From: an archaeon
Lineage (GTDB): Archaea > Iainarchaeota > Iainarchaeia > Iainarchaeales > GCA-2688035
Direction of reading: 5' to 3'
NCBI GenBank assembly: GCA_041645325.1
Contig: JBAZQI010000002.1
Coordinates: 8,850 to 72,849 of the forward strand
DNA length: 64,000 nucleotides
Part shown: positions 10,633 to 63,040 of the stretch, piece after piece
Numbering within the stretch: the first letter of the stretch is position 1
Layout: the number at the start of each line of letters is the position of its first letter
Position numbers and translations under genes: made by a program
Notes under the pieces: model-generated
Seen by the model: the letters and a program-made list of their open reading frames with translations, nothing else
Told to the model about the DNA's origin: nothing
Database searches by the model: none

Positions 10633-10860
10633 CAAGCCTTTCTTTCTAAAGAAAGAAAGCCTTGGGAAAGAAAGAGGTTTTTTTGTTGTTGCAAAACCTT
10701 AGAGATGCTTTGGCATCTCTTACGGTTTCTGAACCTTATAGGTTCAGAAAAAACCTTGGGAAAGAAAGTTTCCCTGTTTTCGCCAGTCCCAAGCAAAGCA
10801 TGGCTTTGCGGGCCTCGTACCCTGCAGGGCACTCGGTTTTGGAAAAAGGCTTTTTCCGCC
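10633..10860. repeat. Intergenic repeat cluster: 2 copies of the AAAGCCTTGGGAAAGAAAG motif, a 76-bp double-hairpin module, and palindrome CCTCGTACCCTGCAGGGCACTCGG
   Basis: Motif copies at about 10655-10674 and 10748-10768. The 10693-10768 module (AGAGATGCTTTGGCATCTCT and TCTGAACCTTATAGGTTCAGA hairpins) is nearly identical to 23617-23690. The 10813-10836 palindrome recurs at 62995-63018. Lies between convergent 3' ends. Confidence 0.8.
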
Positions 10861-10863
10861 TGC

Positions 10864-12087
10864 TTACCCTGTTTTCATTATGTAAACATAAACCGCTATG
10901 GCAACAAGCACAAGTGCAATGCCGACATAAATCAACGGGTTTATTTCCGGCTGGCTGAACTCAACAAAGCTGTCCTGGCACTGGCTCTCCGAAATGTTTA
11001 CGTCCGTGTATGTTATTGTGCAGCTTATCGGGAACTTTCCGGCTTCGCCGCTGTTTACCGAAAAGTTCACGTACTTTGTTTCCTTTGGCTGTATTGACCC
11101 AATGCCGGCTTCGCCGCCTGTTGTTTCAGTTGCGGAATTTATCCTGATGCCTAAATCATACAATGGATCAAGGCCTATGTTTTTCACGGCGAGCGTCAAT
11201 TCAATGGGCTGGCCCACAAAAGCGTTTTCCTCTTTCTTAACAATAAACGCCTCTATTTTCCTCTCAGGCTGCCTCACATCCAAGGAAACAAGGTTGCTGA
11301 ATTTTGCCTCCTGTTCCTCGAATTCGTTTTCATAGTAAACTATTGCAGGCGGCAAAGTCATGTGCACCGGAACACGGGGCTTGACAACATAGCTTATTTC
11401 AACTGTTTCGCCTGGCTTCACCAAGCCTGTGAAATATGTATCCCCTTCAACAACAGAAAAGGCATTCTTGTCCTCTGCAAGAGGCCTTGCAAATTCAACC
11501 CTTGCATTGGTCACAGCGCTACCCTCATTATGTAGAAGTATTGTTATTGTTGTTTTTTCGCCTATCACAAGCCCGGTTTTTTCGGCATCCATCCTGAAAG
11601 CATTTTCCCCTGAAAAATCGGCAGTCTTGTAAAGCCCGACACCAGAACCGCTTTTGAGCTTAATGCTTGTTATAGTGTTGCCTGTCCCAAGGCAAACCTT
11701 GATTCTGTTTTCCTCTTCCCTCAATGCATTTTTAGGCAGGAAAAGCCTCTCCCAGCAAACCCCTTCTTTGCACTTGAAATCCCCCGCAGAGGCATAATTC
11801 TCGGCAATAACCTTGCCGTTTAAAAAGGCATTAACGTCTATCTTTCCTTCCTGCACAGGCCCAAATTCAAGGCCTATTGACGCAATCGGGTAGATTTCCC
11901 TGTTTTCAATTGCAATATCGGCAGGGTAAATGAATTCAGCCTCAAAGCAGCCTGTATGCCCAGCAGGGCCGTCAACCAAAAAGTCCTCATAACCCATTTC
12001 CCCAAAGCTTCTCTCATAAACGGCTTCGCCAAAAGCCGTTGGCAGAACCAGAAGCGCAACCAATGCGGCAAAAAAACACTTATTCAT
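10864..12087 (-). CDS. Secreted surface protein with CARDB-like beta-domains and C-terminal TM anchor
   Basis: Signal peptide MNKCFFAALVALLVLPTAFGEA. Repeated ~100-aa segments with G..V.I...V.N.G patterns (LAVKNIGLDPLYDL, ITILLHNEGSAVTNARVEF). C-terminal PLIYVGIALVLVAIAVYVYIMKTG. Confidence 0.55.
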   Translation of the reverse strand: MNKCFFAALVALLVLPTAFGEAVYERSFGEMGYEDFLVDGPAGHTGCFEAEFIYPADIAIENREIYPIASIGLEFGPVQEGKIDVNAFLNGKVIAENYASAGDFKCKEGVCWERLFLPKNALREEENRIKVCLGTGNTITSIKLKSGSGVGLYKTADFSGENAFRMDAEKTGLVIGEKTTITILLHNEGSAVTNARVEFARPLAEDKNAFSVVEGDTYFTGLVKPGETVEISYVVKPRVPVHMTLPPAIVYYENEFEEQEAKFSNLVSLDVRQPERKIEAFIVKKEENAFVGQPIELTLAVKNIGLDPLYDLGIRINSATETTGGEAGIGSIQPKETKYVNFSVNSGEAGKFPISCTITYTDVNISESQCQDSFVEFSQPEINPLIYVGIALVLVAIAVYVYIMKTG

Positions 12088-12578
12088 AACACAGCCCCCT
12101 TTTCTTTTAACCCCTGTACTATTCTATCCAATGTTTCTTTTATACTTTTCCCGCCCTGCACTTCAACAATCTTTTCTCCGGGATAGTTCCCGAGCAAGTG
12201 CTTTTTGCAGTAATCACTGCCCTCGCAGAAAACATTGTCCTGCACCTTTTCCTCGCTGTAATTCCTTGCCTGCAGCCTTGCCTCCAAAACAGCAGGGTCA
12301 ACCCTGATAAGCACAACGAAATCTGCTTTTGTCTTGAGCTCGCACAAAAGATGGCCCTCAATTACCACGCTTTTTTCCCTTGAAAAAAGCCAGTCAAGGG
12401 CCTTTGCAAAGGACTGCAATGGAATCACAAGCTCGTTCTCATCAGGGTCAAATTTTCCTATTTTTTGCTCCAGGGCAAACTGCTTTTCATTGAGAACAGC
12501 GCAGCCAAGTTTCTTGCCAAGCGCCCTTGCCACGCTTGTTTTTCCAACGCCAGGGCTCCCTGTAATTATGATGTGCAT
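12084..12578 (-). CDS. Putative adenylate kinase, AK6/Fap7 family (archaeal nucleotide kinase)
   Basis: MHIIITGSPGVGKTS P-loop at the extreme N-terminus and a length of about 165 aa, typical of Fap7/AK6-type kinases. Confidence 0.75.
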   Translation of the reverse strand: MHIIITGSPGVGKTSVARALGKKLGCAVLNEKQFALEQKIGKFDPDENELVIPLQSFAKALDWLFSREKSVVIEGHLLCELKTKADFVVLIRVDPAVLEARLQARNYSEEKVQDNVFCEGSDYCKKHLLGNYPGEKIVEVQGGKSIKETLDRIVQGLKEKGAVL

Positions 12579-12709
12579 TCAAAGAGAATTTGCCTGGAAA
12601 AGGAATTTAAACCAGGTTGAAACCCAAAAACAGGTTCTCATCATCATGCACGATGATGTAATAGCAAAAAAACCGCAATCTTCCCAACCAAAAATAGGGG
12701 TGAAGGGCA

Positions 12710-12847
12710 TTACCGCCTGCAGCGCTTAGCGAAAGCAGTTTCGCTGTCAGACCTGGTAATGCCCCCTTTGCTTAGAGTCTTGCCTAGCTCAGATGCCTTT
12801 TCAGAACTAAGTTCAGCCACTTCAAAATGGCCTTCGTTTGTTCCCAT
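12710..12847 (-). other. Possible 45-codon small ORF whose 3' end and stop are embedded in a 10-bp perfect inverted repeat (GGGCATTACC...GGTAATGCCC)
   Basis: Reverse strand reads MGTNEGHFEVAELSSEKASELGKTLSKGGITRSDSETAFAKRCRR. There is a TTTATAGGGGG TATA-like element about 50 nt upstream. The stem-loop (12705-12766) could equally be a terminator or RNA element for the upstream FttA gene. Confidence 0.15.
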
Positions 12848-13215
12848 ATATGATCCCTTCGCAAAGCACAACTATTATGCGCAACCCCCTATAAATACTT
12901 TTCGGTAAACAAGCTCAAATTGGGCTTTTTTTTAAGTATCTTGAAAAAATTGGCTTTTGTTTCAAAAAAGAAGCCTGTATAAGGCTTATTTTTTATGTAT
13001 ACTTGCCTTTTTTTGAAATTTTTTTTTTAAAAAATTTTTGGCCAAAAATGGCGTTATGTAGAAAAGGCTTTAAAGGAAAGAATCTGTTTCTTTAGTAGAG
13101 AATGCGTACTTGCTTGTGGCCTATAAAGTTTATACATTGCCACTTTTTTTTGATGAAACTTTTTCCAAAAGTTTCTTGTGCTTAGTTTTAGCGTGTTGCC
13201 TGCAGAATAAGCCCT

Positions 13216-15108: not shown

Positions 15109-15201
15109 CTAAGAATTCCTCTCGCGCCCCTGGTTCTTTTTCTGAAAAAAAACCAAAGGCAAAATTGTTCTCTTTATTTTGCAAAAATCCCTTTTCGGGA
15201 G

Positions 15202-15843: not shown

Positions 15844-15929
15844 TCACTACCCACCAAAAAATCTAAGACAAACAGAACAGTTCTCTGAAAAACTTCTATA
15901 GGCAAATCTTTATAAAGCCTTTTCTTTTG

Positions 15930-16005
15930 CTACCGCAAAAGAAAAGCCTTGGGAAAAGAAAGCTTTTCGCTTCGCGAAAAGAGGCCTTAGGCAACTTTTT
16001 TCCAG
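15930..16005. repeat. Intergenic hairpin/repeat element containing AAAAGCCTTGGGAAAAGAAAG
   Basis: Motif copy at about 15942-15962, flanked by hairpins TGCTACCGCAAAAG and CTTTTCGCTTCGCGAAAAG. Lies between the FKBP 3' end and the psmB 5' end. Confidence 0.7.
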
Positions 16006-16007
16006 CC

Positions 16008-16805: not shown

Positions 16806-16965
16806 CCTAAAAAAGGAGAGAAAAAGACTCCCTTCCAGTTATTCCATTACACATTTTCTGAAAGCAAAAATATTTAAAAGAAAGCTAAAGTCTTTTTCCA
16901 GCCAATTGATTGCTATTAAATGCAAAAGAAAAATCTTAAATACAAAGAAAACCTAATAGAGTAGA

Positions 16966-20460: not shown

Positions 20461-22302
20461 ATGAAGGGATCCATTTTTCTAATCGTGCTTGCGGTTGCAG
20501 CAATAGCGTTAAGCGGCTGCGTGCAACCCGCTGTTTGCGGAAATGGAATATGCGAAACAGGGGAAACACTGCAAAGCTGCCCGCAAGACTGCGGGCAACC
20601 GGCAGAATCGCATTTTGAGTGCTCAAGCCAGCAATGCATGCAAGTGCCAGGTGGAGGAACGGACGAATGTGTAACAAATGCGGAATGCATAACGCCAACG
20701 CACTTTGAATGCCAAAGCCAAGCATGCGTGCAAGTGACCGGCGCGGGAACAGACGAATGCACAGCAAACGCGGAATGCACAGCACCAACGCACACCGAAT
20801 GCCAAAACCAGCAATGCATTACAGTCAGCGGCGCTGGAACAAACCAATGCCAGGCAAACCAGGATTGCACAATAGCCTCAGTTTGCGGAAATGGCGCGGT
20901 TGAGCAAAATGAAGAGTGCGATGGCAATTTAATGTGCCAAGAAGGATACAACTGTGAAAGCTGCAAGTGTGTTGAAATGCCCGTTGCTTGTGGCAATGGG
21001 ATAATCCAGGAAGGAGAAGATTGTGATGTTGAGAATATATGTAGCGAAGGTTTTGAGTGCAAAGATTGCAAGTGTATAAAGAAGGAAGCTGTTTGCGGAA
21101 ATGGCCTGTGCGAGTACTTGGAAGACAAAACTAATTGCCAAGCCGATTGCGACAAGTGTATGGAAATCTATGACGGATACAATAATCCTTCGGCGAACAG
21201 AGCAAACATAATTTTTGCTGCTTTTGAGGTTGATTCAATAAAAGACAAAGCCAAGCAAGCTTTGGATTTGGACGAAAAAACATTGGGCTTGTTTTCGATA
21301 GAGCCCTTTAAAAGCAATAAAAACAAATTCAACTTTTGGTATGTTGACAAAAAATATGCCTCATCAAATGAAGCCTTGTCAGATGAAGCCAAAAAAGAAA
21401 TTGAAAGAATCTGCAATTACAGCAACACTTATTCTTATTATATTGCAAAAGACATAGACAACTTTATGCCCCTGGGAACAGCTGGACAGGGCCCTGGCAA
21501 TAAAGCCACAATTCGCTGGTACAAAGACGATCCAGATCCGCAAACTAATACCATAATAAGTACGGTCATTCATGAGTCAGGCCATTTAATAGGGCGATTA
21601 AAAGATGAATATGTGCTGGCGACAGGAAATGGCTCCATCTTTGATCAAGGCGAATACAAGCTTGACGAAAGTCTAGTCGAAAGAAACATATTCTTTGATT
21701 GGGAATCTTACAAAAATAATGGCAAAACAACAGAGGAAGAATGCCTGCAAAAAACCCATTGGAAAAGCCTTATCGGAAGTGGTTGCGGAAATCCTGCTGT
21801 TGTGGACTGCATTGAATGGCATTTAAAATGGGCTTTTGTGACAGATGAATCAGCAGCCCAAACATCATACGCCAAAATAGTTGGAGCTGATGTGAATTTT
21901 ACAATGCCTGAAAAGATTGACTCGCTTTCAGCAATTTACTACGGAGAAAACGCCTTGAAGATTACCAGCGCTTGCGAATCAAAAGATGGAAAAAACTGGT
22001 TTTGCTCGATATCAAATACTACAGCAGCCATTCTTAGCCTGATTGTGAATGGAGAACGAACCGAATTGAACTCCAACCTAAGACTGTCAGGCGGTGCTAT
22101 AAAATGCAAGGAAGGTATGCCTGACTGTATTATTGAAATTTCTTGCTTTGAGGGGGCACTCTACAAGCAGTACGATGTTTTTAGGCCAACATTTAACTCA
22201 ATAATGAATGAGCTTATAAATCGGCAGAGAGGGCAATATTCGTTTGGCAAAGTAAATGAACAGTTAATACAAAGCGAGTTAGACAAATACTCAAGCAGTT
22301 AA
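20461..22302 (+). CDS. Secreted lipoprotein: Cys-rich repeat modules fused to putative zinc metallopeptidase domain (HExxH...DEY, M64-like), paralogue 1
   Basis: Lipobox IALSGCVQP and the module VCGNGICETGETLQSCPQDCG. Three 26-aa HFEC..Q.C..V.G.GTDEC..N.EC repeats. Two CGNG....EECD/GEDCD repeats of the Myxococcus Cys-rich-repeat type. Catalytic-looking VIHESGHLIGRLKDEY. Confidence 0.6.
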   Translation: MKGSIFLIVLAVAAIALSGCVQPAVCGNGICETGETLQSCPQDCGQPAESHFECSSQQCMQVPGGGTDECVTNAECITPTHFECQSQACVQVTGAGTDECTANAECTAPTHTECQNQQCITVSGAGTNQCQANQDCTIASVCGNGAVEQNEECDGNLMCQEGYNCESCKCVEMPVACGNGIIQEGEDCDVENICSEGFECKDCKCIKKEAVCGNGLCEYLEDKTNCQADCDKCMEIYDGYNNPSANRANIIFAAFEVDSIKDKAKQALDLDEKTLGLFSIEPFKSNKNKFNFWYVDKKYASSNEALSDEAKKEIERICNYSNTYSYYIAKDIDNFMPLGTAGQGPGNKATIRWYKDDPDPQTNTIISTVIHESGHLIGRLKDEYVLATGNGSIFDQGEYKLDESLVERNIFFDWESYKNNGKTTEEECLQKTHWKSLIGSGCGNPAVVDCIEWHLKWAFVTDESAAQTSYAKIVGADVNFTMPEKIDSLSAIYYGENALKITSACESKDGKNWFCSISNTTAAILSLIVNGERTELNSNLRLSGGAIKCKEGMPDCIIEISCFEGALYKQYDVFRPTFNSIMNELINRQRGQYSFGKVNEQLIQSELDKYSSS

Positions 22303-22779: not shown

Positions 22780-23433
22780 ATGAAAAAGGACCTTGTGAGT
22801 TCCTTTGAACAGTTGCAGAAAATGCTTCCCCCTGGCCTTGCAATAGAAAACGAAGCCGCAAGGGTTGCTGCGCTCAAACATTACCTTTCAAAGGGCGGCG
22901 TAATACACATTGCTCCAAGCGAAAGCGGCTGGCCAAAATTGCTGTACCCCACAAAAGCCCATTTGAGGAAAAAAATCGACGAAACAAGGGCACTGCGCAC
23001 CCAGTATTACAGGCGCCTTGAAAGCTGGCAGCACAAGTTTGACGGCGCAAAAAGCTACCACCAGGTGCACAGCATAAAAAAGCTCAAAGAGCCATTGTAC
23101 TGGAAACACATGGCCAAATGCATGGTTGATGCAGACTACAGGTCAGACGCCGGCAAGGTAAATCTGCCTGTGCACCTTGTTGCCGACCCAAGGTGGAAGC
23201 CAATGGTCAAAACCTTTATCTCAGACCTGGACTACAGGAAACAGCTTGTTCAAACAGTTGACGAAAGCATTGTCTACAAAAACGACAAAAGGGTGGCGCA
23301 ATACGCAGACCTGCTCCAGGACTTCAGGATGGAACAAAGCAACCGCAAAATAGGTGAACTCAATCAAAAGCTTGCAGCCCTTGACGCGGACATAACCGCA
23401 ATGCAAGAACTCGCAAGATGGGCAAGCTTTTAG
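22780..23433 (+). CDS. Hypothetical protein
   Basis: 217-aa ORF with plausible coding periodicity. No motif recognised. Confidence 0.4.
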   Translation: MKKDLVSSFEQLQKMLPPGLAIENEAARVAALKHYLSKGGVIHIAPSESGWPKLLYPTKAHLRKKIDETRALRTQYYRRLESWQHKFDGAKSYHQVHSIKKLKEPLYWKHMAKCMVDADYRSDAGKVNLPVHLVADPRWKPMVKTFISDLDYRKQLVQTVDESIVYKNDKRVAQYADLLQDFRMEQSNRKIGELNQKLAALDADITAMQELARWASF

Positions 23434-23700
23434 AAGCCTTTCTTTCTAAAAGCCTTTTAATAAAAGGCTTGCGAAAAACGATGGCGAAAAATGCTTCGCG
23501 AGAAAGAAAGCCTCCTGGCAAAACCATTGGTTTTGAAAGGCCCAGCAAAGCTGCAGCTTTGCCGGGTGGGAAAGAAAGCTTTTTGCTTCGCAAAAAGAAG
23601 CCTTTTTTTCTGCTGAAAAACCTTAGAGATGCTTTAGCATCTCTTACGGTTTCTGAACCTTATAGGTTCAGAAAAAGCCTTGGGAAAAAATGCGCTAATT
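23434..23700. repeat. Intergenic repeat cluster: hairpins plus second copy of the ~70-bp double-hairpin module and the AAAAGCCTTGGGAAAA motif
   Basis: 23617-23690 (AAAAACCTTAGAGATGCTTTAGCATCTCTTACGGTTTCTGAACCTTATAGGTTCAGAAAAAGCCTTGGGAAAA) is about 95% identical to 10693-10768. Additional hairpins include AGCCTTTTAATAAAAGGCT and CTTTTTGCTTCGCAAAAAG. Confidence 0.8.
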
Positions 23701-23837
23701 TTTTGCTAAGCATTTTTTTCCATTTCAGCGGATTCTTATTTTTCCGTTTGCAATTGCCTGCAGGAAGTCCATATCAAGGCTGCCCGGGTTACGAGGCCTT
23801 GCCAGGAAAATTTTTGCAGCAGTTTTGCCGGCAGCTT

Positions 23838-24804: not shown

Positions 24805-26667
24805 ATGAAAAAAGGTTTTGTTTTTATTTTGCTTTTGCTTGCATTGCTTTTGTCAAGCGGGTGCATTCAGCCACCAGTCTGCGGAAACGGAGCATGCGAA
24901 ACAGGAGAGAATCAACAAAACTGCCCACAAGACTGTGGAACAAGTCCAACGCACTTTGAATGCCAAAACCAAAAATGTGCAATTGTTCAAGGCGCGGGAG
25001 TTGATAAATGCCAGACAGACAAACAATGCCTAACTATTCCGGAAAAACACAACGAGTGCAATGAACAACAACAATGCATTGAAATATCAGGAAGCGGACC
25101 GAATGAATGCCAAAGCAGTACTGAATGCAAGCTGCCAAAGTCAGGTAATATTAATTTTGTTAAAATCCATGAAGGCACATATACAGGCACAAAAATAAAC
25201 TTATATTTTGTTAATTTTGGTTACCCCTCAGACAACTATGCCTCTTTTGTTTATGATGTCAACTACGCATTGTTTGCTGATGATTCTTTCGAAGGAAAAA
25301 GACAAAGAGGTCTTCTCAATGCAGAGCCATTTAAAACTTACAAAGAAAGATTTGACATTTATCAACTAAAAAAAATATTGGATGGGGAGGAAATAGGTTG
25401 CGGTGATTCGTGCAACATGATGGATGTGACCGTTTTTATAGAGTCTGCTGATGGGCTAAACCTTGGAAAGTGTTCCAATGATTACTCTTTAATTGATGAC
25501 AAATATTCTCTTGTTAATTGCAATGAATTTGTCCTCTTAATTAAAACACTTCCCTCCGGTTGGCAAGTAACGGCTGATAATGAATATATGCCTATACAAA
25601 CGGGGATTGAATCCCGCCTCGAAATATTTTTACATGAAATGGGGCATTTATTTGGCGGCATTAGGGATGAATATGACGAAGGTTATAACCAAGTATTACA
25701 ACAGACGGGCGAATATGACAACTTAAATTCCTTAAGCGTGTCACTTGAAGGGCAAAATTGCGATGTCAGGCCTGGCTGCCCAAGCTGGTGCAGTGGACCG
25801 GCAAAAAAAGTTCAAATAACAGGCGCGTGCACTTACAGTACGACTGAAAGCGCGTGCAATTCAAACTATGCTGACAGCTGTGTGTGGATTACAAATCCAG
25901 AATTAGTTGATTATTTTGGGTCAAATTGCATTCCACAATGGCCTAGCGGGGATGTTCTTTCATGGAATAGCGGGAATCAATGCGGTGAAGAATTAGGCTG
26001 TTACTATGGTTGTGATGGTTTTGGTTGGAGACCAACTAAAATTTCCCTTTATGGCCCGAATCTTTATATGTGGGATTCTGTTGAATGGAATAATTATACA
26101 AAAGATGGCCTTGAACCTTTTAATTCAATTCAAAAAAAAATGATTAATGAGAAAATAGAAAAAAATACAAATTACGTTAGCGGCAATGACATCCCGATCA
26201 GCACTGAAGTAGCAAGGACTAGAATGGTTTGGGACTTGCCTGAACTTACCGGATTTATCCCTGGCGGAATGTGGAATTTGAGCAAATCTGAAACCCAAAC
26301 CATTTATCACATCGATTTGCGTTATATTAAAGTAGACCAAAGGTCAGAATTTGCGCTCGACATCATTGAAGACCCCGCCTCTATGATAGTTACTGCACTA
26401 CCAGACTCATTTTTGGATGAAAAAGTAAGTGAAGCACGAGGCATATGGAAAGATATATCATTGAAGGAAATTAATGGCAACAAGATTTTTGAAGGGACAA
26501 CAGATGCTTCGGCAGGAAAACAAAAATATGCCTTGTGGATATCTGAAGACAATTTTGTTAGGGGCTGGAACGGCAATGATGAAGGCACTGTTATTGATGA
26601 TGCCTTATTTGATGCTCTTCTAAACGCATACCTTAAAAAATACCCCTCAACATACGGGCGCGGATAG
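24805..26667 (+). CDS. Secreted lipoprotein Cys-rich/M64-like putative zinc metallopeptidase, paralogue 2
   Basis: LLSSGCIQPPVCGNGACETGENQQNCPQDCG, then two HFEC-type repeats, then FLHEMGHLFGGIRDEYDEGYN. Lower GC than paralogue 1. Confidence 0.55.
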   Translation: MKKGFVFILLLLALLLSSGCIQPPVCGNGACETGENQQNCPQDCGTSPTHFECQNQKCAIVQGAGVDKCQTDKQCLTIPEKHNECNEQQQCIEISGSGPNECQSSTECKLPKSGNINFVKIHEGTYTGTKINLYFVNFGYPSDNYASFVYDVNYALFADDSFEGKRQRGLLNAEPFKTYKERFDIYQLKKILDGEEIGCGDSCNMMDVTVFIESADGLNLGKCSNDYSLIDDKYSLVNCNEFVLLIKTLPSGWQVTADNEYMPIQTGIESRLEIFLHEMGHLFGGIRDEYDEGYNQVLQQTGEYDNLNSLSVSLEGQNCDVRPGCPSWCSGPAKKVQITGACTYSTTESACNSNYADSCVWITNPELVDYFGSNCIPQWPSGDVLSWNSGNQCGEELGCYYGCDGFGWRPTKISLYGPNLYMWDSVEWNNYTKDGLEPFNSIQKKMINEKIEKNTNYVSGNDIPISTEVARTRMVWDLPELTGFIPGGMWNLSKSETQTIYHIDLRYIKVDQRSEFALDIIEDPASMIVTALPDSFLDEKVSEARGIWKDISLKEINGNKIFEGTTDASAGKQKYALWISEDNFVRGWNGNDEGTVIDDALFDALLNAYLKKYPSTYGRG

Positions 26668-26877: not shown

Positions 26878-28563
26878 ATGAAAAAAGAATTTTTGCTTGT
26901 TTCTTTGCTTGTTGCGGCGCTTGCATTAAGCGGGTGCATTCAGCAGCCGGTTTGCGGAAACGGAGCATGCGAAGCAGGCGAGAATCAACAAAACTGCATG
27001 GAGGATTGCAAACTGACTGATGCAAATTGTTCTGATGGAACTACAGATGGAAGTTGTTCAATAACAAATGGCTTGCTTTGCAATAATGGAAAGCTTGAAA
27101 TGAACTGTGAAAAGTGCGTTTGCACTCCATTAATCGCTTGTTCTGGAGGCAATTGTGGAAAAAGAAATGTTGCAGAAGCAAACTATAATTGCACTTTTTG
27201 CAATGGTTTTTGCTTTGCAACGGATTCCCGGCTAAAGTCAATGTGTGAAAATAGTGTCTTTTATGAATGGAATCCTGAAAATGGCGAAGGAAAATCTTGT
27301 TTGACAGACCAAGATTGCACTTTGAGAGATTATCCACGGTGTGTGAAAAATGTTTGTTTACAGTCACTTCTGCATGAATATCCAACAAAAATCGCAGTAT
27401 CTTACCCGCGTTATGTTCAACAAAACAAACCGTTTTCATTTAAAGTAGATGTGGAAAATACCACTACGACACAGTTAACGTTCAGGCTATTTGATGTTTT
27501 TACCAGCTACTACAATCAGCAGGACAAAAAAATTGGATTTGATGAATACAAGGAAATAGCGCCAAAAAGCAAAGCTAGTTTTGAGATAACAAGCCCTGGA
27601 TTAGATGAAGTTTCAGCAGCATCAACGGTTTTCTTTAGATATAACATGCAACAGGACCGCCAGATATACGGCTCTTTTGGCTGGGAGTCTTTTGAGCATG
27701 GCCCAATAATTGTTGGGACTTGCCCTGAATCAGAAACAGAAATCTGTGGCGATTTGAAATATTGCCCAAAAGACAGGTTGGGCATCTGCTCAAATGGCAT
27801 ATTTTACCCTGTTGAACCAGGAACAGCCTGCAGCACCAATTCCGATTGCGAAAGCGGGCTTTCTGTTTGCCTGAACCATTCGTGCAGAGCAACTAACACA
27901 CAATATGGGTTAAATCCCTACATTAAAAATGAAGTGGGGATATTGGGAATTTTTATTTACAATGATAATGCTAAATTCGAAATCGAAAAAAAAACTAAGA
28001 ATGCCGATTTGAAATGGCTAACTGATAGCGCTAACGCGTGGGTTAAATCAGAAAGGGCATATTGGAATGCAACAAACGATTTTGATTTAGAGTTCACGGC
28101 AATAGAAAAAGAATGCAAGTTAGATAAAAAGCAATACCTTGAATTGTTTAAGTCTTGTGAATCTGGTGAAACAAGGAATTGCACTGAAAAAGAACTTGCT
28201 GCTTGTGGCATAGAACAAAAATTTGATGTAATAGCAATGCACGAATTTTTTGAAGAGGGATTATTGGACCAAGAAATAACTGATGAATTAATCAGGATAG
28301 GTTATCCTGGCTCTGCAGGATTAAATGAGGGAAACATCGTTAGATTTAGCTATAATACTGGCGATGAAGGAAAGACAAATTCTGTGCTGATTCACGAAAC
28401 TTTACACTCATTTGGAGAACAGGACCTGTATATAACAAACAAACAATATAATTCATTGTATCAAGAAAGAAACTGCAATCTGTATAATGCAATCTGGTCT
28501 GCCTTTGACAATAATCCGCACCTTTGCGAATTAGAAGCGAAATTAATCGGATGGAAGCAATAA
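26878..28563 (+). CDS. Secreted lipoprotein Cys-rich/putative zinc metallopeptidase (HETLH...DLY variant), paralogue 3
   Basis: LALSGCIQQPVCGNGACEAGENQQNCMEDC with a different Cys-rich middle section and C-terminal SVLIHETLHSFGEQDLY. AT-rich. Confidence 0.5.
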   Translation: MKKEFLLVSLLVAALALSGCIQQPVCGNGACEAGENQQNCMEDCKLTDANCSDGTTDGSCSITNGLLCNNGKLEMNCEKCVCTPLIACSGGNCGKRNVAEANYNCTFCNGFCFATDSRLKSMCENSVFYEWNPENGEGKSCLTDQDCTLRDYPRCVKNVCLQSLLHEYPTKIAVSYPRYVQQNKPFSFKVDVENTTTTQLTFRLFDVFTSYYNQQDKKIGFDEYKEIAPKSKASFEITSPGLDEVSAASTVFFRYNMQQDRQIYGSFGWESFEHGPIIVGTCPESETEICGDLKYCPKDRLGICSNGIFYPVEPGTACSTNSDCESGLSVCLNHSCRATNTQYGLNPYIKNEVGILGIFIYNDNAKFEIEKKTKNADLKWLTDSANAWVKSERAYWNATNDFDLEFTAIEKECKLDKKQYLELFKSCESGETRNCTEKELAACGIEQKFDVIAMHEFFEEGLLDQEITDELIRIGYPGSAGLNEGNIVRFSYNTGDEGKTNSVLIHETLHSFGEQDLYITNKQYNSLYQERNCNLYNAIWSAFDNNPHLCELEAKLIGWKQ

Positions 28564-31447: not shown

Positions 31448-31467
31448 GCCGTTTTTGCTCAAGGCAC

Positions 31468-31728
31468 TTTTCCCAAGGCTTTTTCTGAAGGAAAAAGGCT
31501 TAGCAACGCATCAGCGTTGCTGTTTTCCCAAGGCTTTTTCCGAAGGAAAAAGGCTTAGCAACGCATCAGCGTTGCTGTTTTCCCAAGGCTTTTTTCAACA
31601 GAAAAAAGGCTTTGCGCGAAGCGCATTTTTCCCAAGGCTTTTTCTGAAGGAAAAAGGCTTAGCAACGCATCAGCGTTGCTGTTTTCCCAAGGCTTTTTGC
31701 CAACAGGCAAAAAGGCTTCTGCACAAAA
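31468..31728. repeat. Tandem array of five ~46-57-bp units, each TTTTCCCAAGG + A/U hairpin + GC hairpin (AGCAACGCATCAGCGTTGCT) + GTTTT
   Basis: Units start at about 31468, 31523, 31578, 31626 and 31683. Units 1, 2 and 4 are near-identical; 3 and 5 have variant hairpins (TGCGCGAAGCGCA; CTTTTTGCCAACAGGCAAAAAG). Contains the reverse complement of the dispersed AAAAGCCTTGGGAAAA motif. Confidence 0.85.
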
Positions 31729-31808
31729 TTTATTAATAATGAAAGTATTCTATTAGTGTGCATATTCTATTAGTGTGCAAACCACAGCGTCAGGGAGCGT
31801 TTTTTTGA

Positions 31809-34800
31809 ATGGATAACCCTTTGAACAGCATAGTTGAGTCTTTCAAGAAAGGCTACTATTTCCTTGAAGACCGCTACTATATGCTTTTGGACAAGGTAAA
31901 CGGGCATGTTCCAATCTACAAGGCAATTGACCCTGTGGACCGTGTGTTTCCCTCCTTTGTGCTGCTGATTGCCGTACTGGCCTGCCTTGCAATTCTCCTG
32001 ACTTTTACGCTCTTGCCGCAGGTTTCACTGTCTGCAACACTGCGCGTGCTTGACGAAAACAACAACCCGCTGGAGGGCGCGCACATCTCGGTTTCATTCA
32101 ACGACGAGTCAATAGGCCTTGACACCGACGATTTCGGCGAAGCAAAGCTTGCGTTGCCGCAAAGCGGGGTTGAAGCCGCAATACTCGTGTCAAAGGACGG
32201 TTTTGACAGGCTAAGCCAGACCATAACACTGAAAACAAACGACCTTGTTGACCTTCTTCTCAGCAGGACAAAAGCCTCCTTTCAAGCCACCAAATCCACA
32301 ATATACGTTGTCGACTCAAGAACAAACAGGCTGATTAAGGGACAGGTGCACCTTGAATTCACCTGCTCAACCGGCACCCCAGCCCCTGCGCCTCTATCTG
32401 GCGCAACAGGCGAATTCAAGGACATGGCGGTTTCAGGTGAATGCGGCACGCTTCTTGCAAAGGCCATGGCTGAAGGATACGAGCCAAAGGCAAGCGTTGC
32501 CATAACAAGGAATCCAACCTACCTAAAGCTTGACCCTCTTGACCCTGTTGAAACAACAACCGGAATAAACGTGATTGTAAGGGACCATGCCGGAAACGCG
32601 GTGCAGGGCGCAATAGTCAAGGCCTTCGGCGGCGGCAACGTGCTGGTGCAGCAGCTTTCAACCGACACAAGCGGCACAGTCTCAATCCAGGGCATTGAAC
32701 CCGGCATTTACTCGGTTACCGCAAGCCATTCCGACGGAAGGTATGCCGAAAAAACCGGCGTAGAAGCCCTTATAGGCACGCCCGCAACTGTCACGCTTTC
32801 CTTCGCACAGCCGGCCACAGGCGACGGAGAGAAAATATCCATGCACTTCACCGATGCGGTAACAAACGCAAGCATCCCGAACGCAACAGTCCTGATTTAC
32901 GCAAACAACCTGCTCTTTGATTCAAAAACAAGTGATTCCTCAGGCCTAATAGAAAAGGCGGTTGACGGCAACAACTCGTCATTCATTGCCGTGGCATCAC
33001 ACGACAATTATGTAACAAGAATAATCACAAACGTGGCGGTAATGGACGCATCCAGCAAAACCCCGCAGGCAATAAAGCTCACGCCACTCGCATCCGACGG
33101 CTCAAACAGCGGCAAGGTAAGCATCTTTGTTTCCGACTATGAAACAAAAAAGCCGGTTGAGGGCGCACAGGTATTCCTCTACAGCGCGGACTATCCCGAA
33201 ATAATACTCGATTATCCCTACGCGCTCACAAACGCGGACGGCAACATGCTTATTTCAAGGCTGCCTGAAGGCTCTTACTTTGTAAAGGTAAAAAAGTCCA
33301 ATACCGAGGGAACAAGCGAAACAGGCAAACTTGTAGCTGGTGCAACCCTGGGCTTTTCCATTATGCTTATTACAACTGAAGGCAAGGTCAAGGCTGAGGT
33401 TGTTGACAAAAAAACAGGCAGTCCGATACAGGGCGCTGAAATAACCTTTACTGACTACGCCACTGATTCCGTGCTCCAAAGCGGCTTTTCTGACGCGCAG
33501 GGAAAGCTTGAATCACAGCCCTTCAAGTCAAACAAGACCGTTTACGTGAAAGCCGTAGCCGCAGGATACTTCTCTGCAACAAGCATGCCGCTTCCCATAG
33601 TGTCAAAAAGCGCGCAAAGCGTCAGGCTGGAACTTGACTCAAAAAGCGATATAAGCCTTGACCAGAATATGGCAATCAAATTCGAGGGCTTTTACGCCGA
33701 CAAGGCCCTGAAGCAGAAGGCAACAACCCTCGAATCAGGCGAAACAGGCCAGCTCTACTATTATATCAAATTCACGGTGCTTACCGCAAAAGACGCAAAC
33801 TACTCGAATATTATGCACCACATAAGGCTCGATTCAGAGGAAAAAGGCAAAAGCCCGGAAAAACTGCCTACCCCGACAGGATACACCGCAAGGCTTCTTA
33901 ACTACGCCGCAAGCTCGCCCTACTCATCGACAATCTTCAGCGCATGCTACAATCCTGAAAATGTATTCTCAAGCCCGGAGGCCTGCATAACAGACCTTGT
34001 CGCAAAACAGGCAAACACGCTTTGGGCAACAGCCTCAAGGCAAACAGCTTACACCCTTGTGCTTAAAATGGAAATCGAGCAAAACCTTGAGGACGGCACG
34101 GAAATAGAGCTGCGCTACCAGGGCAAAGCCATAATGAACAATTCCGAATTCATGACACAGCCATTCCTGCAGACCTTCAGAATAGGCGAGCCAATCTGCT
34201 CGCCACCCGACTGCCCTGCAGCCATAATGCGCTTCTGGCTCCAGGATTCAAACGGCAACAAGGCAATCCTCCAAAGCTTTTCGGGCGAAAGCGATTACAC
34301 GACCGGGCAGGAAACCGAGCTTGCAAGCTATTCCAATTACAAGCTGTTCTACGAGGTCCGCAACACAAGCGGTGTGGAACTGACAGCAACACTGAAGCTT
34401 GAAAACGCTGACCCCCCCAATGTGGTTTCAATACAGGGCGAAAACATTCAAACCGCATTTTCAGGGCTGCAAATTGCCGCCCACACTGTTGCCTCACAGG
34501 GCTCGCCTGTGCAGCTGAAAACAGGTAGTGAAGCCGCATTCACTAAAATCAAGGCCTCTTTTACTTCAACACAGGGCAAGGCCATGGAACAATTCATCCC
34601 GTTCACGGTAACAGCCGCAAAAGAGCTCACACTGGCGGTTTCGCCCTCGGTGCTAATACCAAACGATGGCAGCCAGATTTTAAGCGGCTATGTTAAGTCA
34701 AGTGATGGCACCCCGGTTCAGGGCGCCTCAATAAGCATCTTCCTGCCTGGCAACACGCTGTTCGAATCGCTTGTTTCCGGCGAAACAGGGGCTTTCTCCT

Positions 34801-55794: not shown

Positions 55795-55795
55795 T

Positions 55796-57486: not shown

Positions 57487-57569
57487 TTAGCGCTTTGTCC
57501 CTGCCTTATTCCCTGACAAAACCAATCCGCCTGTTTTTTGCGGTCATTTTGACGAAATGCCGCAGAGGC

Positions 57570-58008: not shown

Positions 58009-58134
58009 AAAGATATATTGCCAGCGTAATATAAAAACATTTGTTATTTTTTCGGCATTTGACGCCTAGCTTGGCCATACCAATAAGCATTTCCAGTCTG
58101 ATTGCGCACGAAGGAAAAACAGGGGACCTGCTGT

Positions 58135-59058: not shown

Positions 59059-59105
59059 AGTAAAAACTGCTTTCCCCTGCTATATTAAGCTTGGCTTTTG
59101 GAATT

Positions 59106-59708: not shown

Positions 59709-59719
59709 AAAAACCAGTT

Positions 59720-62119
59720 TTAATAGCAAAGTTCAACCCTGAACTCTTTTGCCTTTTTTATCTCAAGGGCCTGAACAGCCATTGTCCTCTTTATTGCTTC
59801 TTCACCGAGGCGCAGCCTTTCCGGCTCTTCAACGGAAACAATTGCCTTTGCAACAGGCGCATTCAGGGGTTTTCTTGCATCGCTTTTCTGCTTTCTCATT
59901 TCTGCCACAGCCTGGTTTATCAGCGCGCCTGTTTTTTCGGCTTCCTCATCAATGAAACTTTCATCAGCTTCAGGCCATTTCTCCAAGCTTACGCTCTTGC
60001 CAGCAAGCATTTCCTTAAAATTTGCGTGCGCAATTTCTTCAGCAGTGTGCGGCAGGAAAGGCGTGAGCAAGAGAAGCGTTTTCCAGGCAACCTCACGCAG
60101 CACTGCAGCCGCAATCTTTCCGGTTTCATCTTCCTTGCAGTAAACCCTTGTTTTCACTTCTTCAATGTAAAAGTCCGCGAATTCAAGCCAGAAAAAGTTC
60201 CTGGCAGGGTTAAGGCACTTGCTGAACTCAAAGTTTTCAAAGGCCTCTGTGCACTCCTTTATGGTGCGGTTCAGCCTGCTCAAAATAGCCTTGTCTTCAG
60301 GCAAAAGCTTTTTCCTGTCAATCTTTTCGGTCTTCACGCCCTTGGTTGCCATTGCCACAAAGTTGTTTGCGTTCAGCATTTTTGTCACAAACTTTTTGCC
60401 TGCAACCATTTCTTTTTCCTGGAACGGCACATCTTCGCCCAAAACAGGCAGGCCTGCCCAGTACCTCAGGGCATCTGCACAGTACTTTGAGGTCATTTCC
60501 TCCGGCTTCACGACATTGCCCAGGCTTTTTGACATTTTCTTGCCGTGCGGGTCAAGCGCCCAGCCGTTTATCGTGATTGTTTTCCAGGGCAGCTCATGCT
60601 GGTGGAACAACGCCTTTACAATTGTGTTGAATGCCCACAATGCTATTATGTCATGGCCCTGGGGCCTCAAGTCCATTGGGAACATTTTTTTGAAGAAAGC
60701 CTTGTCCTCAACCCATTTGCAGTTAATCTGCGGCGTCAGGCTGCTTGTGAACCATGTGTCAAACGTGTCCTTTTCCCCCTCAAAGTCCTGGCAGCCGCAT
60801 TTGCATTTTCGCAGAGGCTTGTCCTTGAGCGGGTCAACAGGCAATTGCTTTTCATCAGCCAAAACAACCGAACCGCATTTTTTGCAGTACCAAACAGGGA
60901 ACGGTATGCCGTAATACCTTTGCCTTGAAATATTCCAATCCCATTTCAGTCCATTGATCCAATTATCAAGCCTTTTCCGCATGTATGCCGGAACCCATTG
61001 CAGTTGCCCTGCTTTTGCAATAAATTCATCCCGCAGGTCGAGATAGCGGATAAACCACTGCTTTGCCGTGAGTATTTCAATCGGCGTCTTGCATCTCTCA
61101 TGCACATTTACAACATGCTTTATAGGCTCCTGCTTTATCAAATGCCCGCTCTTTTTCAACTCCCCAATTATCTTCTCTCTTGCTTCTTTTGTCCTCAATC
61201 CCCGCAAAATGCCGGCTTTTTCATTGAATGTTCCATCCTTGTCAATTATTTCAATTACAGGCAAATTCGTTTCAAGAATCCATTCAACATCATCAAGGTC
61301 GCCAAAAGTGCAGTGGTATACTGCGCCTGTCCCAAATTCAGGGTCAACACCCTTGTTTGCAAAAACCTTTACCGTCCTGCCGTTAGTGAATGGAATCTTT
61401 ACTTCTTTTCCGATGAAGCGCTGGTATCTTTTGTCATCCGGGTGAACGTGCACTGCAACGCATGCAGGCATCAATTCAGGCCTTGTTGTTGCAATTGTTA
61501 TCTTTTCCCCATCGGTTGTTTCGAATTGAATATAATTGAAGCTGCTTTCCTCCTCCCTGTCCTCCAGCTCAGCCTGGGATATTGCGGTAGCGCAGTTCGG
61601 GCACCACATCGCCGGCGCGTCTTTTTGGTAAAGCCTTTCCTGCCTGTGCAAATCCAAAAAGCTGTATTGCGCGGTTTTTCTTGCCAATTTGTCAATGGTC
61701 CTGTAAAGAAGGCTCCAGTCAATGCTCAAGCCAATGCTTTTGAATGCGGCGAGCATTTTTGCCTCTTCTTCGGCTGTGCCCTCCAAAACTATTTTTATGA
61801 ATTCGTCCCTTGAAAAGTTTTTTTGCTTTATGCCCCTCTTCTTTTCAACCATCAAGGCCGTGGCCAATCCGTTGTTGTCAAAGCCGAACGGGTGAAAAAC
61901 CTCAAAGCCGCGCATTTTCTTGTAGCGTGCAATGAAGTCCTGCTGTGTGAATGCAAAGGCATGGCCCAGGTGCATTGTGCCTGAGACAGTCGGCGGCGGC
62001 GAGTCAACACTGTAAACCTTTTTCCTGCTTTTTGCATCAAACTTGTAGATTTGCTCGCTTTCCCAGTACTTTTGCCACTTTTTTTCCATTTCCTGCAAAT
62101 CCAAAGCCATGCCAGCCAA
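59720..62119 (-). CDS. valS: Valyl-tRNA synthetase (class I aaRS)
   Basis: PPPTVSGTMHLGHAF (HIGH-type motif in the ValRS-typical PPPTVSG context), KMSKSLGNVV, and a CP1 editing-like insert. 799 aa. Confidence 0.8.
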   Translation of the reverse strand: MAGMALDLQEMEKKWQKYWESEQIYKFDAKSRKKVYSVDSPPPTVSGTMHLGHAFAFTQQDFIARYKKMRGFEVFHPFGFDNNGLATALMVEKKRGIKQKNFSRDEFIKIVLEGTAEEEAKMLAAFKSIGLSIDWSLLYRTIDKLARKTAQYSFLDLHRQERLYQKDAPAMWCPNCATAISQAELEDREEESSFNYIQFETTDGEKITIATTRPELMPACVAVHVHPDDKRYQRFIGKEVKIPFTNGRTVKVFANKGVDPEFGTGAVYHCTFGDLDDVEWILETNLPVIEIIDKDGTFNEKAGILRGLRTKEAREKIIGELKKSGHLIKQEPIKHVVNVHERCKTPIEILTAKQWFIRYLDLRDEFIAKAGQLQWVPAYMRKRLDNWINGLKWDWNISRQRYYGIPFPVWYCKKCGSVVLADEKQLPVDPLKDKPLRKCKCGCQDFEGEKDTFDTWFTSSLTPQINCKWVEDKAFFKKMFPMDLRPQGHDIIALWAFNTIVKALFHQHELPWKTITINGWALDPHGKKMSKSLGNVVKPEEMTSKYCADALRYWAGLPVLGEDVPFQEKEMVAGKKFVTKMLNANNFVAMATKGVKTEKIDRKKLLPEDKAILSRLNRTIKECTEAFENFEFSKCLNPARNFFWLEFADFYIEEVKTRVYCKEDETGKIAAAVLREVAWKTLLLLTPFLPHTAEEIAHANFKEMLAGKSVSLEKWPEADESFIDEEAEKTGALINQAVAEMRKQKSDARKPLNAPVAKAIVSVEEPERLRLGEEAIKRTMAVQALEIKKAKEFRVELCY

Positions 62120-62225
62120 ACCCCTTAAATCGCCTTTAGAGAAATTCGGAAGGAAATTAATTTAAAGGCAATTTAAGGCGCCTTTGCGCAGGAGGGATAA
62201 GAATAAAAACCGCGCAATCCTATTT

Positions 62226-62885
62226 ATGCCTATGGCCTCTTTTAAGGTTTTCAAGGCAGGCACTTTTGCCCTCACAATAATTGCGGTTTTGCTCGCTTTC
62301 CTGGTTTATGCGACCCTGCCGCCAGCAGTGCCAACTCACTGGAACATGTGGGGCGAAGTTGACGGCTTTGGCCCAAGCTGGTTCGCAGCCTTCCTTATTC
62401 CAATCATGATGGTTTTTGTGCTTTTGCTGTTCGTAATAATTCCCATAATCGAGGTTTTCAAGAAAAACCTTCATTCCTTTGAAAGGCAATACTGGATTCT
62501 CGGCTATGCAATACAATTGTTCTTCCTGCTTTTTTTTGCAATAACCCTTTTGCCAGACTATGGCTATGTATTCAACTTCAACCAGCTTTTCATGCTGCCA
62601 ATGGCAATGCTTTTCATAACAATCGGCGTTTTGCTGCCTTCATTCAAAAGAAACTTTCTTGTCGGCATAAGGACTCCCTGGACGCTTGCCAATGACACAG
62701 TGTGGAAAAAAACCCATGATCTAGGCGGAAAAGCATTCATACTCGCAGGCTTTGCCCTGCTCATAAGCCTGCCTTTCCCAAACGCAATCTTTTTCGTTCT
62801 CATTGCCGATGTAATCCTTGTTCTTGCCGCAACAGTCCTGTACTCCTACCTTGAATACAGGAAAAACCCAAAAGCAGACCTATAA
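62226..62885 (+). CDS. SdpI/YhfL-family membrane protein (DUF1648 + SdpI domains)
   Basis: PTHWNMWGEVDGFGPS (DUF1648-like) and GIRTPWTLANDTVWKKTHDLGGKAF (SdpI/YhfL signature), with about 6 TM helices. Start taken at MPMASFKV. Confidence 0.6.
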   Translation: MPMASFKVFKAGTFALTIIAVLLAFLVYATLPPAVPTHWNMWGEVDGFGPSWFAAFLIPIMMVFVLLLFVIIPIIEVFKKNLHSFERQYWILGYAIQLFFLLFFAITLLPDYGYVFNFNQLFMLPMAMLFITIGVLLPSFKRNFLVGIRTPWTLANDTVWKKTHDLGGKAFILAGFALLISLPFPNAIFFVLIADVILVLAATVLYSYLEYRKNPKADL

Positions 62886-63040
62886 AAGCCTTTTTGCCTC
62901 ACGGCAAAAAGCCTTGGGAAAGAAAGAAGCCTTTTTTGCTTGGGCAAAAAAGCCTTGGGAAAACCAAAACATAGAAAAGCAAAAGCTTTTCGTGCCTCGT
63001 ACCCTGCAGGGTACTCGGTCGCTGTTGCGATTTTAAGCCT
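62886..63040. repeat. Intergenic repeat cluster: two copies of the AAAAGCCTTGGGAAA motif, hairpins, and palindrome CCTCGTACCCTGCAGGGTACTCGG
   Basis: Motif copies at about 62906-62926 and 62947-62964. Hairpin TTTTGCCTCACGGCAAAA. The 62995-63018 palindrome matches 10813-10836. Lies between convergent 3' ends. Confidence 0.8.

Follow-up and report, generated by a model that had tools for sequence, protein, structure and literature searches.

A Palindromic Repeat, Probably Mobile, at Gene Ends of an Archaeal Contig and in tRNA Introns and Protein Genes of Its Relatives

The window (the whole 64-kb stretch of archaeal DNA that was analysed) contains a short motif, repeated in five intergenic clusters, which is part of an imperfect palindrome. 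We favour, with some reserve, the reading of this palindrome as a non-autonomous mobile repeat resembling the REP/BIME and RPE elements. It recurs without positional conservation in related genomes, where it is also found within tRNA introns and in-frame in protein genes. Of the explanations offered in an earlier note on this DNA, the one in best agreement with the evidence is the conserved core of a miniature mobile element family; a protein-binding role of the motif may exist as well, while a dedicated termination signal is poorly compatible with where the copies are found. For the window alone, the motif is explained by a real, probably selfish repeat and not by a terminator code.

Anatomy of the Repeat Unit

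The 16-mer AAAAGCCTTGGGAAAA is matched 12 times at up to two mismatches in the 64-kb window, as against 0.52 matches expected, and none of 100 shuffled sequences reached this count. Its 10-base core CCTTGGGAAA occurs exactly 11 times (0.44 expected), and all 11 core copies lie outside the called genes. The description of a dispersed family, far above chance and always non-coding, is hence borne out in the window. The matches start at 10655, 10749, 15942, 23462 (a variant), 23673, 62907 and 62948 on the + strand and at 31468, 31523, 31578, 31627 and 31682 on the − strand; the positions given previously stand, apart from some starts that were off by 1-2 bases.

Folding places the 16-mer as the 3′ arm and tail of a longer imperfect palindrome and not as a free-standing motif. 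The palindrome reads AAG-C-C, T5-7, 1-3 variable base pairs, a loop of 3-5 nts, the complement, A5-7 and G-C-CTT, with AAG/CTT closing the stem around a conserved C.C mismatch. Behind it come the tail GGGAAAA and, in many cases, a second hairpin of higher GC content, the loop of which is mostly TTC, corresponding to GAA on the other strand. The unit, of about 35-45 nts, encodes no protein and has no stop codon in any of the six frames. Because of these open frames, callers relying on ORFs alone place many copies “inside” ORFs; the context of each copy was therefore assigned with a codon-usage gene caller. The total for the window is nine canonical units, two motif copies attached to a different hairpin and one variant. 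The covariance model R1 scores the nine units at 46-62 bits and the next match at 25.7 bits, and it detected no decayed copies in the window.

The related loci were collected with an exact pattern, by which the conserved flanks and 5 stem pairs are forced; in the copies compared, AA precedes GCC in 113 of 114 cases, giving the flank (A)AAGCC, and 710 of the 722 pairs (~98%) in 94 distinct stems are Watson-Crick, with 6 G.T versus 4 A.C. Units and composites also have AAGCC on either side. The variable stem pairs covary, and one-sided changes are absent.

These stems bear on a reading at the RNA level, in which the hairpins and the single-stranded GCCUUGGGAAAA would be bound by a conserved RNA-binding or processing factor, stabilising 3′ ends and helping to fold or mark tRNA introns. 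We think this rather unlikely. Wobble asymmetry, the test for a hairpin acting on one strand as RNA, is missing from the 722 stem pairs, and covariation free of one-sided changes likewise argues against it. The lack of a G.U excess points instead to a palindrome at the DNA level, as far as base pairing can be read from sequence. Rfam gave no match in the window at gathering thresholds and none at E ≤ 0.01 in six related loci with disrupted tRNAs.

Five Clusters at Gene Ends

The copies in the window form five mosaic hairpin clusters starting at or beside stop codons. All five loci sit 3′ of at least one gene and three begin at the stop codon. Gene calls place three of them between convergent genes (10633-10863, 23434-23837 and 62886-63051), one fewer than the four of five claimed earlier, and two between co-directional genes (15844-16007 and 31448-31808). 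The window contains no tRNA genes.

The first cluster opens with the canonical unit AAGCC-TTTCTTTCT-AA-AGAAAGAAA-GCCTTGGGAAAGAAAG (10634..10677, + strand; R1 53.7 bits, E 4.7e-11), beginning 1 nt past the stop codon (10630-10632) of a 1007-aa gene. Downstream lies a two-hairpin module (AGAGATGC..GCATCTCT, TCTGAACCT..AGGTTCAGA; 10694..10767, + strand), which ends in the motif copy AAAAACCTTGGGAAAG (10749-10764) and has a twin at 23617-23690; the direct repeat D3 relates 10668-10766 to 23592-23690 with 88% identity. A 35-nt hairpin module, GCTTTGCGGGCCTCGTACCCTGCAGGGCACTCGGT, follows at 10803..10837 (+ strand), and the second copy of this CGTACCCTGCAGGG module is located at 62985..63019 (+ strand; direct repeat D11, 91% identical). 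The two-hairpin module is absent from all related loci compared and was seen only in this genome; the 35-nt module was found only in the window among the loci compared.

The mosaic cluster at 23434..23712 (+ strand; fold z-scores −5.7 and −4.2), which lies directly after the stop codon at 23431-23433, has modules in common with the cluster at 10634-10837. Its parts, all on the + strand, are the variant-B unit AAAGCCTTTTAATAAAAGGCTTGCGAAAA (23450-23477; R1 25.7 bits; hairpin sequence AAAGCCTTTTAATAAAAGGCTT), the hairpin CTTTTTGC-TTC-GCAAAAAG (23579-23597; full sequence CTTTTTGCTTCGCAAAAAG), a partial unit (23598-23624; R1 17.7 bits), the two-hairpin module (23617-23672), a motif copy (23673-23688; R1 18.5 bits, at 23675) and a terminal hairpin (23689-23712). 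At 15915..15980 (+ strand; R1 46.5 bits, fold z-score −3.1), a canonical unit with an 11-bp stem (15915-15962) is joined to a second hairpin, CTTTTCGC-TTC-GCGAAAAG (15960-15978; full sequence CTTTTCGCTTCGCGAAAAG), between the FKBP26 stop (16008) and the psmB TATA box and antisense to both genes. The hairpins at 23450-23477, 15960-15978 and 23579-23597 agree with the flanking hairpins described in the earlier note.

A tandem array of five canonical units occupies 31467..31718 on the − strand (R1 46.5-60.6 bits for all five; fold z-score −4.8), between the Hel308 stop (31447) and the start (31809) of a gene for a 1502-aa surface protein, and is antisense to both. Tandem Repeats Finder reports a period of 55 and 4.6 copies, with the motifs spaced 55 or 49 nts apart, and four units are separated by a second hairpin, which is AGCAACGC-TGAT-GCGTTGCT three times and TGCGC-TTC-GCGCA once. 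A CRISPR reading of the 55-nt array at 31467-31718 was rejected because the “spacers” between the repeats are themselves repeated hairpins. Lastly, two tandem canonical units at 62886..62963 (+ strand; R1 55.5 and 62.0 bits) begin directly after the TAA stop (62883-62885) of an SdpI-family gene (Pfam), and a DnaJ gene converges on them from the opposite side.

The location of all five loci behind a gene 3′ end, three of them from the stop codon onwards, is what would be expected of a dedicated termination or 3′-end signal, possibly read by FttA, in which the T-runs of the arms would stop RNA polymerase and the hairpins would label the 3′ end or shield it. T5-7 is present on both strands of most units, a simple terminator scan flags several hairpin-then-T-run sites in the clusters, and divergent promoter regions are under-represented (~10-15 of ~79 intergenic copies). 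However, only 5 of the ~27 intergenic regions of at least 70 nts in the window carry the element, with the tight convergent junctions and the majority of the co-directional ones free of it, and in the array at 31.5 kb neither neighbouring gene is read into the array on the strand carrying four of the five sites with a hairpin and a T-run. The element is also absent at the equivalent junctions of syntenic relatives, and in related genomes sense copies with T6 runs are found inside tRNA introns and five reading frames. Copies in such places, where termination would be lethal, argue against an efficient terminator, at least in the sense orientation, and a dedicated signal therefore appears unlikely.

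Distribution and Synteny in Related Genomes

Assemblies containing the strict hairpin-plus-motif pattern number at least 25, the majority being Candidatus Iainarchaeum and other DPANN MAGs, so that the signal is not specific to one genome, as had been supposed; the pattern is absent from 2.9 million viral contigs. The density of copies is very uneven. Relatives picked via FttA, and not via the motif, contain one canonical and one diverged copy in 224.6 kb, compared with 11 copies in the 64 kb of the window, a difference of more than 20-fold.

Copies are not positionally conserved between relatives. Relatives whose FttA is 77-87% identical retain both the psmB TATA box and the FKBP-psmB-FttA synteny, and the element is missing from their FKBP|psmB junction. 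It is likewise missing in relatives after the 217-aa gene, the ortholog of which is followed by short unrelated spacers, while the psmB-FttA interval, free of the element in the window, contains a copy in one related locus (L089). The gene for FttA, the presence of which the earlier note had called notable, is real; as a housekeeping archaeal gene whose neighbourhood persists in relatives without the element, its presence says nothing about the motif. Composite units of ~95 and ~170 nts are duplicated within one and the same genome, at unlinked loci whose flanks are unrelated (L033/L056 and L050/L064). Between co-directional genes, 25 copies are antisense and 21 sense; this lack of strand preference speaks against both a termination signal and a cassette acting as RNA.

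The motif is identical in genomes with only ~55-65% protein identity, the exact stretch common to them being 16-24 nts. This identity across distant genomes, together with the absence of decayed copies from the window, fits selection by a binding factor as well as it fits mobility. Binding of GCCTTGGGAAAA by a host protein with a role other than mobility would count against the mobile-element reading.

Selection of this kind could act on a DNA site with a host function, either a lineage-wide sequence for uptake or recognition or a site, located beside palindromes by chance, that is bound by a protein of chromatin, replication or recombination. Both the shared exact stretch and the undecayed state of the window copies are in line with such a site, and in-frame copies need not contradict it, as bacterial uptake sequences are also occasionally tolerated in-frame. 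On the other hand, the large difference in density between the window and its relatives, the nearly invariable attachment of the motif to a hairpin and the concentration of tandem clusters at a few loci, instead of an even spread, make a host-selected site very improbable.

Copies in tRNA Introns and Protein Genes

In related genomes, the element constitutes the 5′ part of tRNA introns, where it is in the sense orientation in 15 out of 15 cases (ARAGORN). It is carried by 12 anticodon-loop introns and by T-loop introns in JAZDHP01 and DATDUE01. The element begins exactly at the 5′ splice junction, and with equal precision at stop codons and tRNA 3′ ends elsewhere. Reading by eye suggested a putative bulge-helix-bulge helix of 4-5 bp in L058, L008, L026 and L039, with a 3-nt bulge checked in the first three, and an imperfect one in L002 and L048. 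The helices are formed by the exon and the tRNA-specific 3′ tail of the intron, not by the element, and no self-contained bulge-helix-bulge was seen by eye in the element or around the copies in coding sequences.

In-frame copies interrupt five protein genes, encoding Fic, Dus, Elp3, a multi-pass membrane protein and IleRS. All five come from a single MAG (CAYHBD01), none from the window, and the motif is almost absent from coding DNA overall. These copies are sense-oriented and contain T6 runs. In the Fic domain, both halves align to FICD with ~42 extra residues between them. For IleRS, the only evidence is that the reading frame continues, since no match to solved structures was detected for the 127 C-terminal residues after the copy. 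This copy is flanked by an 8-bp complement, the geometry of which is not that of a bulge-helix-bulge.

Random insertion of DNA does not by itself account for the strict sense orientation within tRNA introns and coding sequences. An RNA-binding or processing factor would explain why only this orientation is seen in transcribed, constrained contexts. The exact starts at splice junctions, tRNA 3′ ends and stop codons, the conservation of the motif across distant lineages and the ability of the U-run to pair with GGGAAAAA beside the bulge-helix-bulge motif (e.g., in L058) are also consistent with such a factor. Against it, in addition to the properties of the stems, stands the origin of the intron helices from exon and 3′ tail.

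Comparison with Known Repeat Systems

REP/BIME elements are mobilised by RAYT Y1 transposases. Like them, the present element is a short imperfect palindrome (20-40 nts for REP) with a conserved mismatch, which is non-autonomous, high-copy, extragenic and mostly found at gene 3′ ends, and which forms mosaic clusters with other short motifs, here at 10634-10837 and 23434-23712. It differs in lacking the GTAG head of REP and having instead the AAGCC flank and the GGGAAAA tail, in being arranged in direct tandem and not as inverted REPIN pairs, in its archaeal hosts, in its presence in tRNA introns and coding sequences, and in a motif shared between lineages that are far more deeply separated than those of a typical REP family. 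No RAYT was found among the ten neighbouring proteins scanned, and no other transposase or mobilising gene either; these ten proteins, encoded beside copies in L065 and L002, are ordinary (PfkB, NUDIX, CorA, FKBP and others).

Rickettsia palindromic elements (RPE), reportedly described by Ogata et al. in 2000, share with the present element the character of a palindromic selfish repeat in reduced genomes, located in intergenic DNA, in RNA genes and in-frame in genes including housekeeping ones. However, RPEs are bacterial, unrelated in sequence and 100-150 bp long, compared with ~40 nts for the unit here, whose copies in coding sequences are confined to one related MAG and do not occur in the window. 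Small non-autonomous repeats such as archaeal MITEs and IS200/IS605-derived elements are also similar, their hairpin ends being compatible with single-strand transposition beside a short target; the unit is much shorter than typical MITEs, and the terminal inverted repeats of a parent IS, a clear target-site duplication, an empty site and a parent element were not found here. The uptake sequences DUS and USS of Neisseriaceae and Pasteurellaceae are likewise short, lineage-wide, strongly over-represented and often located beside terminator-like hairpins, but they are free-standing, frequent in genes and fairly even, whereas the present motif comes with a palindrome, occurs in clusters and is unevenly distributed among related genomes.

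In Thermoproteales, near-identical intron sequences are found across tRNA isoacceptors, at position 37/38 and at non-canonical T-loop positions (2010 study summarised in PMC4090602). Transposition of archaeal tRNA introns has been inferred from such sequence similarity, and is presumed to occur at the DNA level by a mechanism that is not known (PMC4090602). Near-identical intron sequence in different tRNAs, in both the anticodon loop and the T-loop, is also what is found in the relatives studied here. The difference is that the shared intron sequence is here an intergenic and in-CDS repeat as well, and occurs in DPANN lineages; Thermoproteales introns are not reported as intergenic repeats in the literature searched.

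Proposed Mechanism and Significance

As a mobile or proliferating non-autonomous repeat, the element would probably take the form of a single-stranded DNA hairpin on which a trans-acting factor works. It would land beside A-rich sequence, a target suggested by the AA that precedes GCC in nearly all copies. Insertions would survive where they are least harmful, that is, just after stop codons and tRNA 3′ ends, within tRNA introns, from which the splicing endonuclease would remove them, and occasionally in-frame in protein loops. New units would accumulate beside old ones at AAGCC junctions, building the mosaic and tandem clusters at the five gene ends, and any effects of the hairpins and T-runs on transcript 3′ ends would be secondary.

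A broader proposal, which we advance only tentatively, is that the element is the mobile unit behind the gain and growth of tRNA introns in DPANN archaea: it may seed or extend bulge-helix-bulge introns in the anticodon loop, T-loop and D-loop, colonise gene ends and add in-frame peptides of the type KPFF...KSLGK. If true, the “intron transposition” long postulated for archaea would have its first concrete vehicle. The repeat bears on the open question of how archaeal tRNA introns originate and move, and a family with hundreds of recognisable copies in intergenic DNA, tRNA introns and coding sequences at once makes a tractable system. No description of the motif string or of DPANN tRNA-intron repeats was found in the literature, and the link between a palindromic repeat and archaeal tRNA introns is unreported.

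The repeat also has practical consequences for the annotation of DPANN MAGs. It disrupts the detection of tRNAs and fragments assemblies, and its openness in all six frames gives rise to spurious ORFs. Conversely, it can help to flag archaeal contigs possibly placed in bacterial bins.

Dispersed copies in the window

The 16-mer AAAAGCCTTGGGAAAA has 12 matches in the window at up to two mismatches against 0.52 expected, a number reached in no shuffle, and there are 11 exact copies of its 10-base core CCTTGGGAAA where 0.44 would be expected, which confirms the excess over chance described in the earlier note. The + strand carries copies at 10655, 10749, 15942, 23673, 62907 and 62948, plus a variant at 23462; those of the − strand, at 31468, 31523, 31578, 31627 and 31682, are arranged in tandem with a period of 55/49 nt. 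As had also been claimed, all are extragenic, as judged by a codon-usage gene caller and Pfam checks, and at three loci the cluster starts at the stop codon or 1 nt past it (10632, 23433 and 62885). The convergent setting proposed for four of the five loci holds for three; the other two separate genes read in the same direction, FKBP26 from the next gene psmB and Hel308 from a following 1502-aa surface protein gene, and there the element is antisense to transcription. The element occupies 5 of the ~27 intergenic regions of at least 70 nt and is absent from most co-directional junctions and from tight convergent junctions. A truncated unit (AAGCCTTTTTGCTTCCGAAGC...) in the divergent intergenic region at 3875-4170 is the sole trace of the family on a promoter side within the window.

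Structure of the unit

By folding, the unit is an imperfect palindrome, AAG-C-C(T5-7)(1-3 variable bp)[3-5 nt loop](complement)(A5-7)G-C-CTT, in which AAG and CTT pair around a conserved C.C mismatch. It is followed by GGGAAA(A/G), lengthened in many copies by GAAAG, and the 16-mer is therefore the 3′ arm plus tail of the palindrome, not a free-standing motif. A covariance model trained on 25 related units identified nine canonical units (10634, 15915, 31467, 31523, 31578, 31626, 31682, 62886 and 62927) at 46-62 bits. The next score, 25.7 bits, belongs to a perfect-palindrome variant (AAAGCC..GGCTT-GCGAAAA) at 23450-23477, and no decayed copies of intermediate score were found in the window. 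The motif copies at 10749 and 23673 are attached to a different, two-hairpin module; this module and a 35-nt CGTACCCTGCAGGG module are each repeated inside the window and were found in none of the fetched related loci. The five window loci are thus mosaics of short hairpins. In 68 of 120 copies the unit is followed by a second hairpin, most commonly with a TTC loop (GAA on the opposite strand), and AAGCC is frequent after this hairpin. The C(GAA)G triloop is very stable in DNA. Perfect palindromes of the AAGCC..GGCTT type, such as AAGCCTGTATAAGGCTT at 12971-12987, also occur in an unusually long, AT-rich spacer of 637 nt with A/T tracts, 3′ of FttA (12579-13215); they resemble the variant hairpin and have no covariance-model score.

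The 94 distinct stems contain 722 pairs, of which 710 are Watson-Crick, six G.T and four A.C. Covariation is seen at the three variable pairs, and one-sided changes are absent from them. As the search pattern fixed the flanks and five of the stem pairs, unbiased evidence comes only from the inner pairs and from the copies inside the window. If the constraint acted on RNA alone, G.U would be tolerated on the transcribed strand, hence the symmetry points to a palindrome constrained at the DNA level.

Distribution and conservation

Scanning one genome per species for GCCTTTTT-N5-16-AAAAAGCCTTGGGAAA matched at least 79 loci from at least 25 assemblies; the pattern was not found in a viral contig collection. 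Labels of the assemblies listed comprise nine Candidatus Iainarchaeum, seven "archaeon", three Micrarchaeota or Norongarragalinales, three Aenigmatarchaeota and three bacterial bins. Even the closest of those listed (L074) encodes proteins only 53-67% identical to those of the window; the motif, earlier thought to be genome-specific, is therefore lineage-wide. The archaeal element in L017, L036, L044, L059 and L068 lies in bins labelled Chloroflexota, Chloroflexi or Falkowbacteria; these contigs may be misbinned, since a tRNA interrupted by a 91-nt intron lies on the L017 contig as well.

For a motif-independent comparison, 25 metagenome loci were picked by their FttA protein (56-87% identity). 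These relatives keep the FKBP-psmB-FttA order and the psmB TATA box TTTATAAAG (15903-15914 in the window), both conserved in L082-L088 at 57-87% FttA identity. The element was found at the FKBP|psmB junction in 0 of the 25 loci and after the 217-aa gene in none. In L089, a canonical copy separates psmB from FttA, a junction without the element in the window. Altogether, the 224.6 kb of these relatives contain a single canonical copy and a single diverged one; the 64-kb window has 11. At the window's psmB TATA box, the adjoining element takes over the upstream (BRE) position.

The earlier note had remarked that the termination factor FttA is encoded in the same window. The gene is genuine, but its presence is uninformative about the motif, since relatives keep FttA in synteny without the element. 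FttA is a universal archaeal gene.

Copies in tRNA introns and genes

In related loci, tRNA introns have the element as their 5′ portion, beginning exactly at the 5′ splice junction. ARAGORN placed 15 of 130 copies within intron-containing tRNA genes, all 15 in sense orientation. The shortest such introns consist of the unit plus ~9-10 nt pairing with the anticodon loop (in L058, the 3′ segment pairs as UUCA/UGAA with a 3-nt bulge), and a variant palindrome fills five other tRNA introns. T-loops are interrupted by the element in MAGs labelled Micrarchaeota, where it also follows tRNA 3′ ends. In a MAG with this label, L063 (5720-5900), L026 and L039 have a T-loop intron with the element at about position 58/59; the L063 intron copy carries the variant GCCTTCGGGAAAA, with a second copy immediately past the tRNA 3′ end, and the L026 tRNA, undetected by ARAGORN and Rfam, apparently has several introns.

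Although gene calls cover 83% of this DNA, they include just 19 of the 130 copies, most of them at gene boundaries. Between co-directional genes, orientation is about even (25 antisense vs 21 sense), and ~10-15 copies lie in divergent promoter regions. One MAG, CAYHBD01, carries sense, in-frame copies in genes for a Fic domain (its two halves align to FICD, separated by ~42 additional residues), Dus, Elp3 and a multi-pass membrane protein, and a putative one in IleRS, identified solely by frame continuity. A ~120-nt composite (CCAAGAAACTTTTGG hairpin, unit, second hairpin, GTGGCA..TGCCAC hairpin) occurs twice in one MAG (L028:1800-1925 and L031:3565-3690), once in-frame in a Fic domain and once in apparently non-coding DNA.

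Nature of the repeat

Judged from sequence comparison, the most likely explanation, held with moderate confidence, is a non-autonomous palindromic repeat that would be mobile or proliferating, as in the earlier suggestion of a miniature mobile element core. Abundance is patchy between related genomes, orthologous junctions show gain and loss, composites of ~95 and ~170 nt are repeated within single MAGs at unlinked loci with unrelated flanks, units would grow in tandem at AAGCC boundaries, and tRNA introns and reading frames hold copies. A selfish element fits these features, whereas a dedicated transcription terminator, also proposed earlier, does not; moreover, hairpin-plus-T-run sites in the 31.5-kb array lie mostly on the strand on which no flanking gene is transcribed towards the array. 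No mobilising enzyme was found among ten proteins scanned next to copies, and no empty/filled site pair or target duplication among the loci compared. The strictly sense orientation in tRNA introns and coding sequences is not accounted for by this reading, and neither is a motif identical across distant lineages in a window without decayed copies. Both would also suit the rival explanations, a conserved factor that binds the motif or a role at the RNA level.

The closest known systems to such a proliferating repeat include bacterial REP/BIME elements, whose hallmark GTAG head is missing here, Rickettsia palindromic elements, which are alike in their in-frame and RNA-gene insertions, and the transposition of tRNA introns that has been inferred for Thermoproteales (PMC4090602). 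The element is neither a CRISPR array nor an Rfam family, and an uptake sequence is ruled out as the motif is not free-standing. A full-text literature search found no description of the motif or of DPANN tRNA-intron repeats; what is new is that a single repeat joins dispersed intergenic palindromes, in-frame gene insertions and archaeal tRNA introns.

Other features of the window

A 17-nt sequence is perfectly duplicated in tandem (TATTCTATTAGTGTGCA x2, 31746-31779) ahead of the 1502-aa surface protein gene, which starts at 31809, with an AT-rich, TATA-like stretch on the other side; it may represent a promoter or operator element present twice. The first 120 nt of three neighbouring genes, of 613, 620 and 561 aa, are similar (20461-20580, 24805-24924 and 26878-26997), and one of these genes has 90-nt in-frame tandem repeats (20609-20872); the three appear to form a paralogous family of secreted, cysteine-rich proteins.
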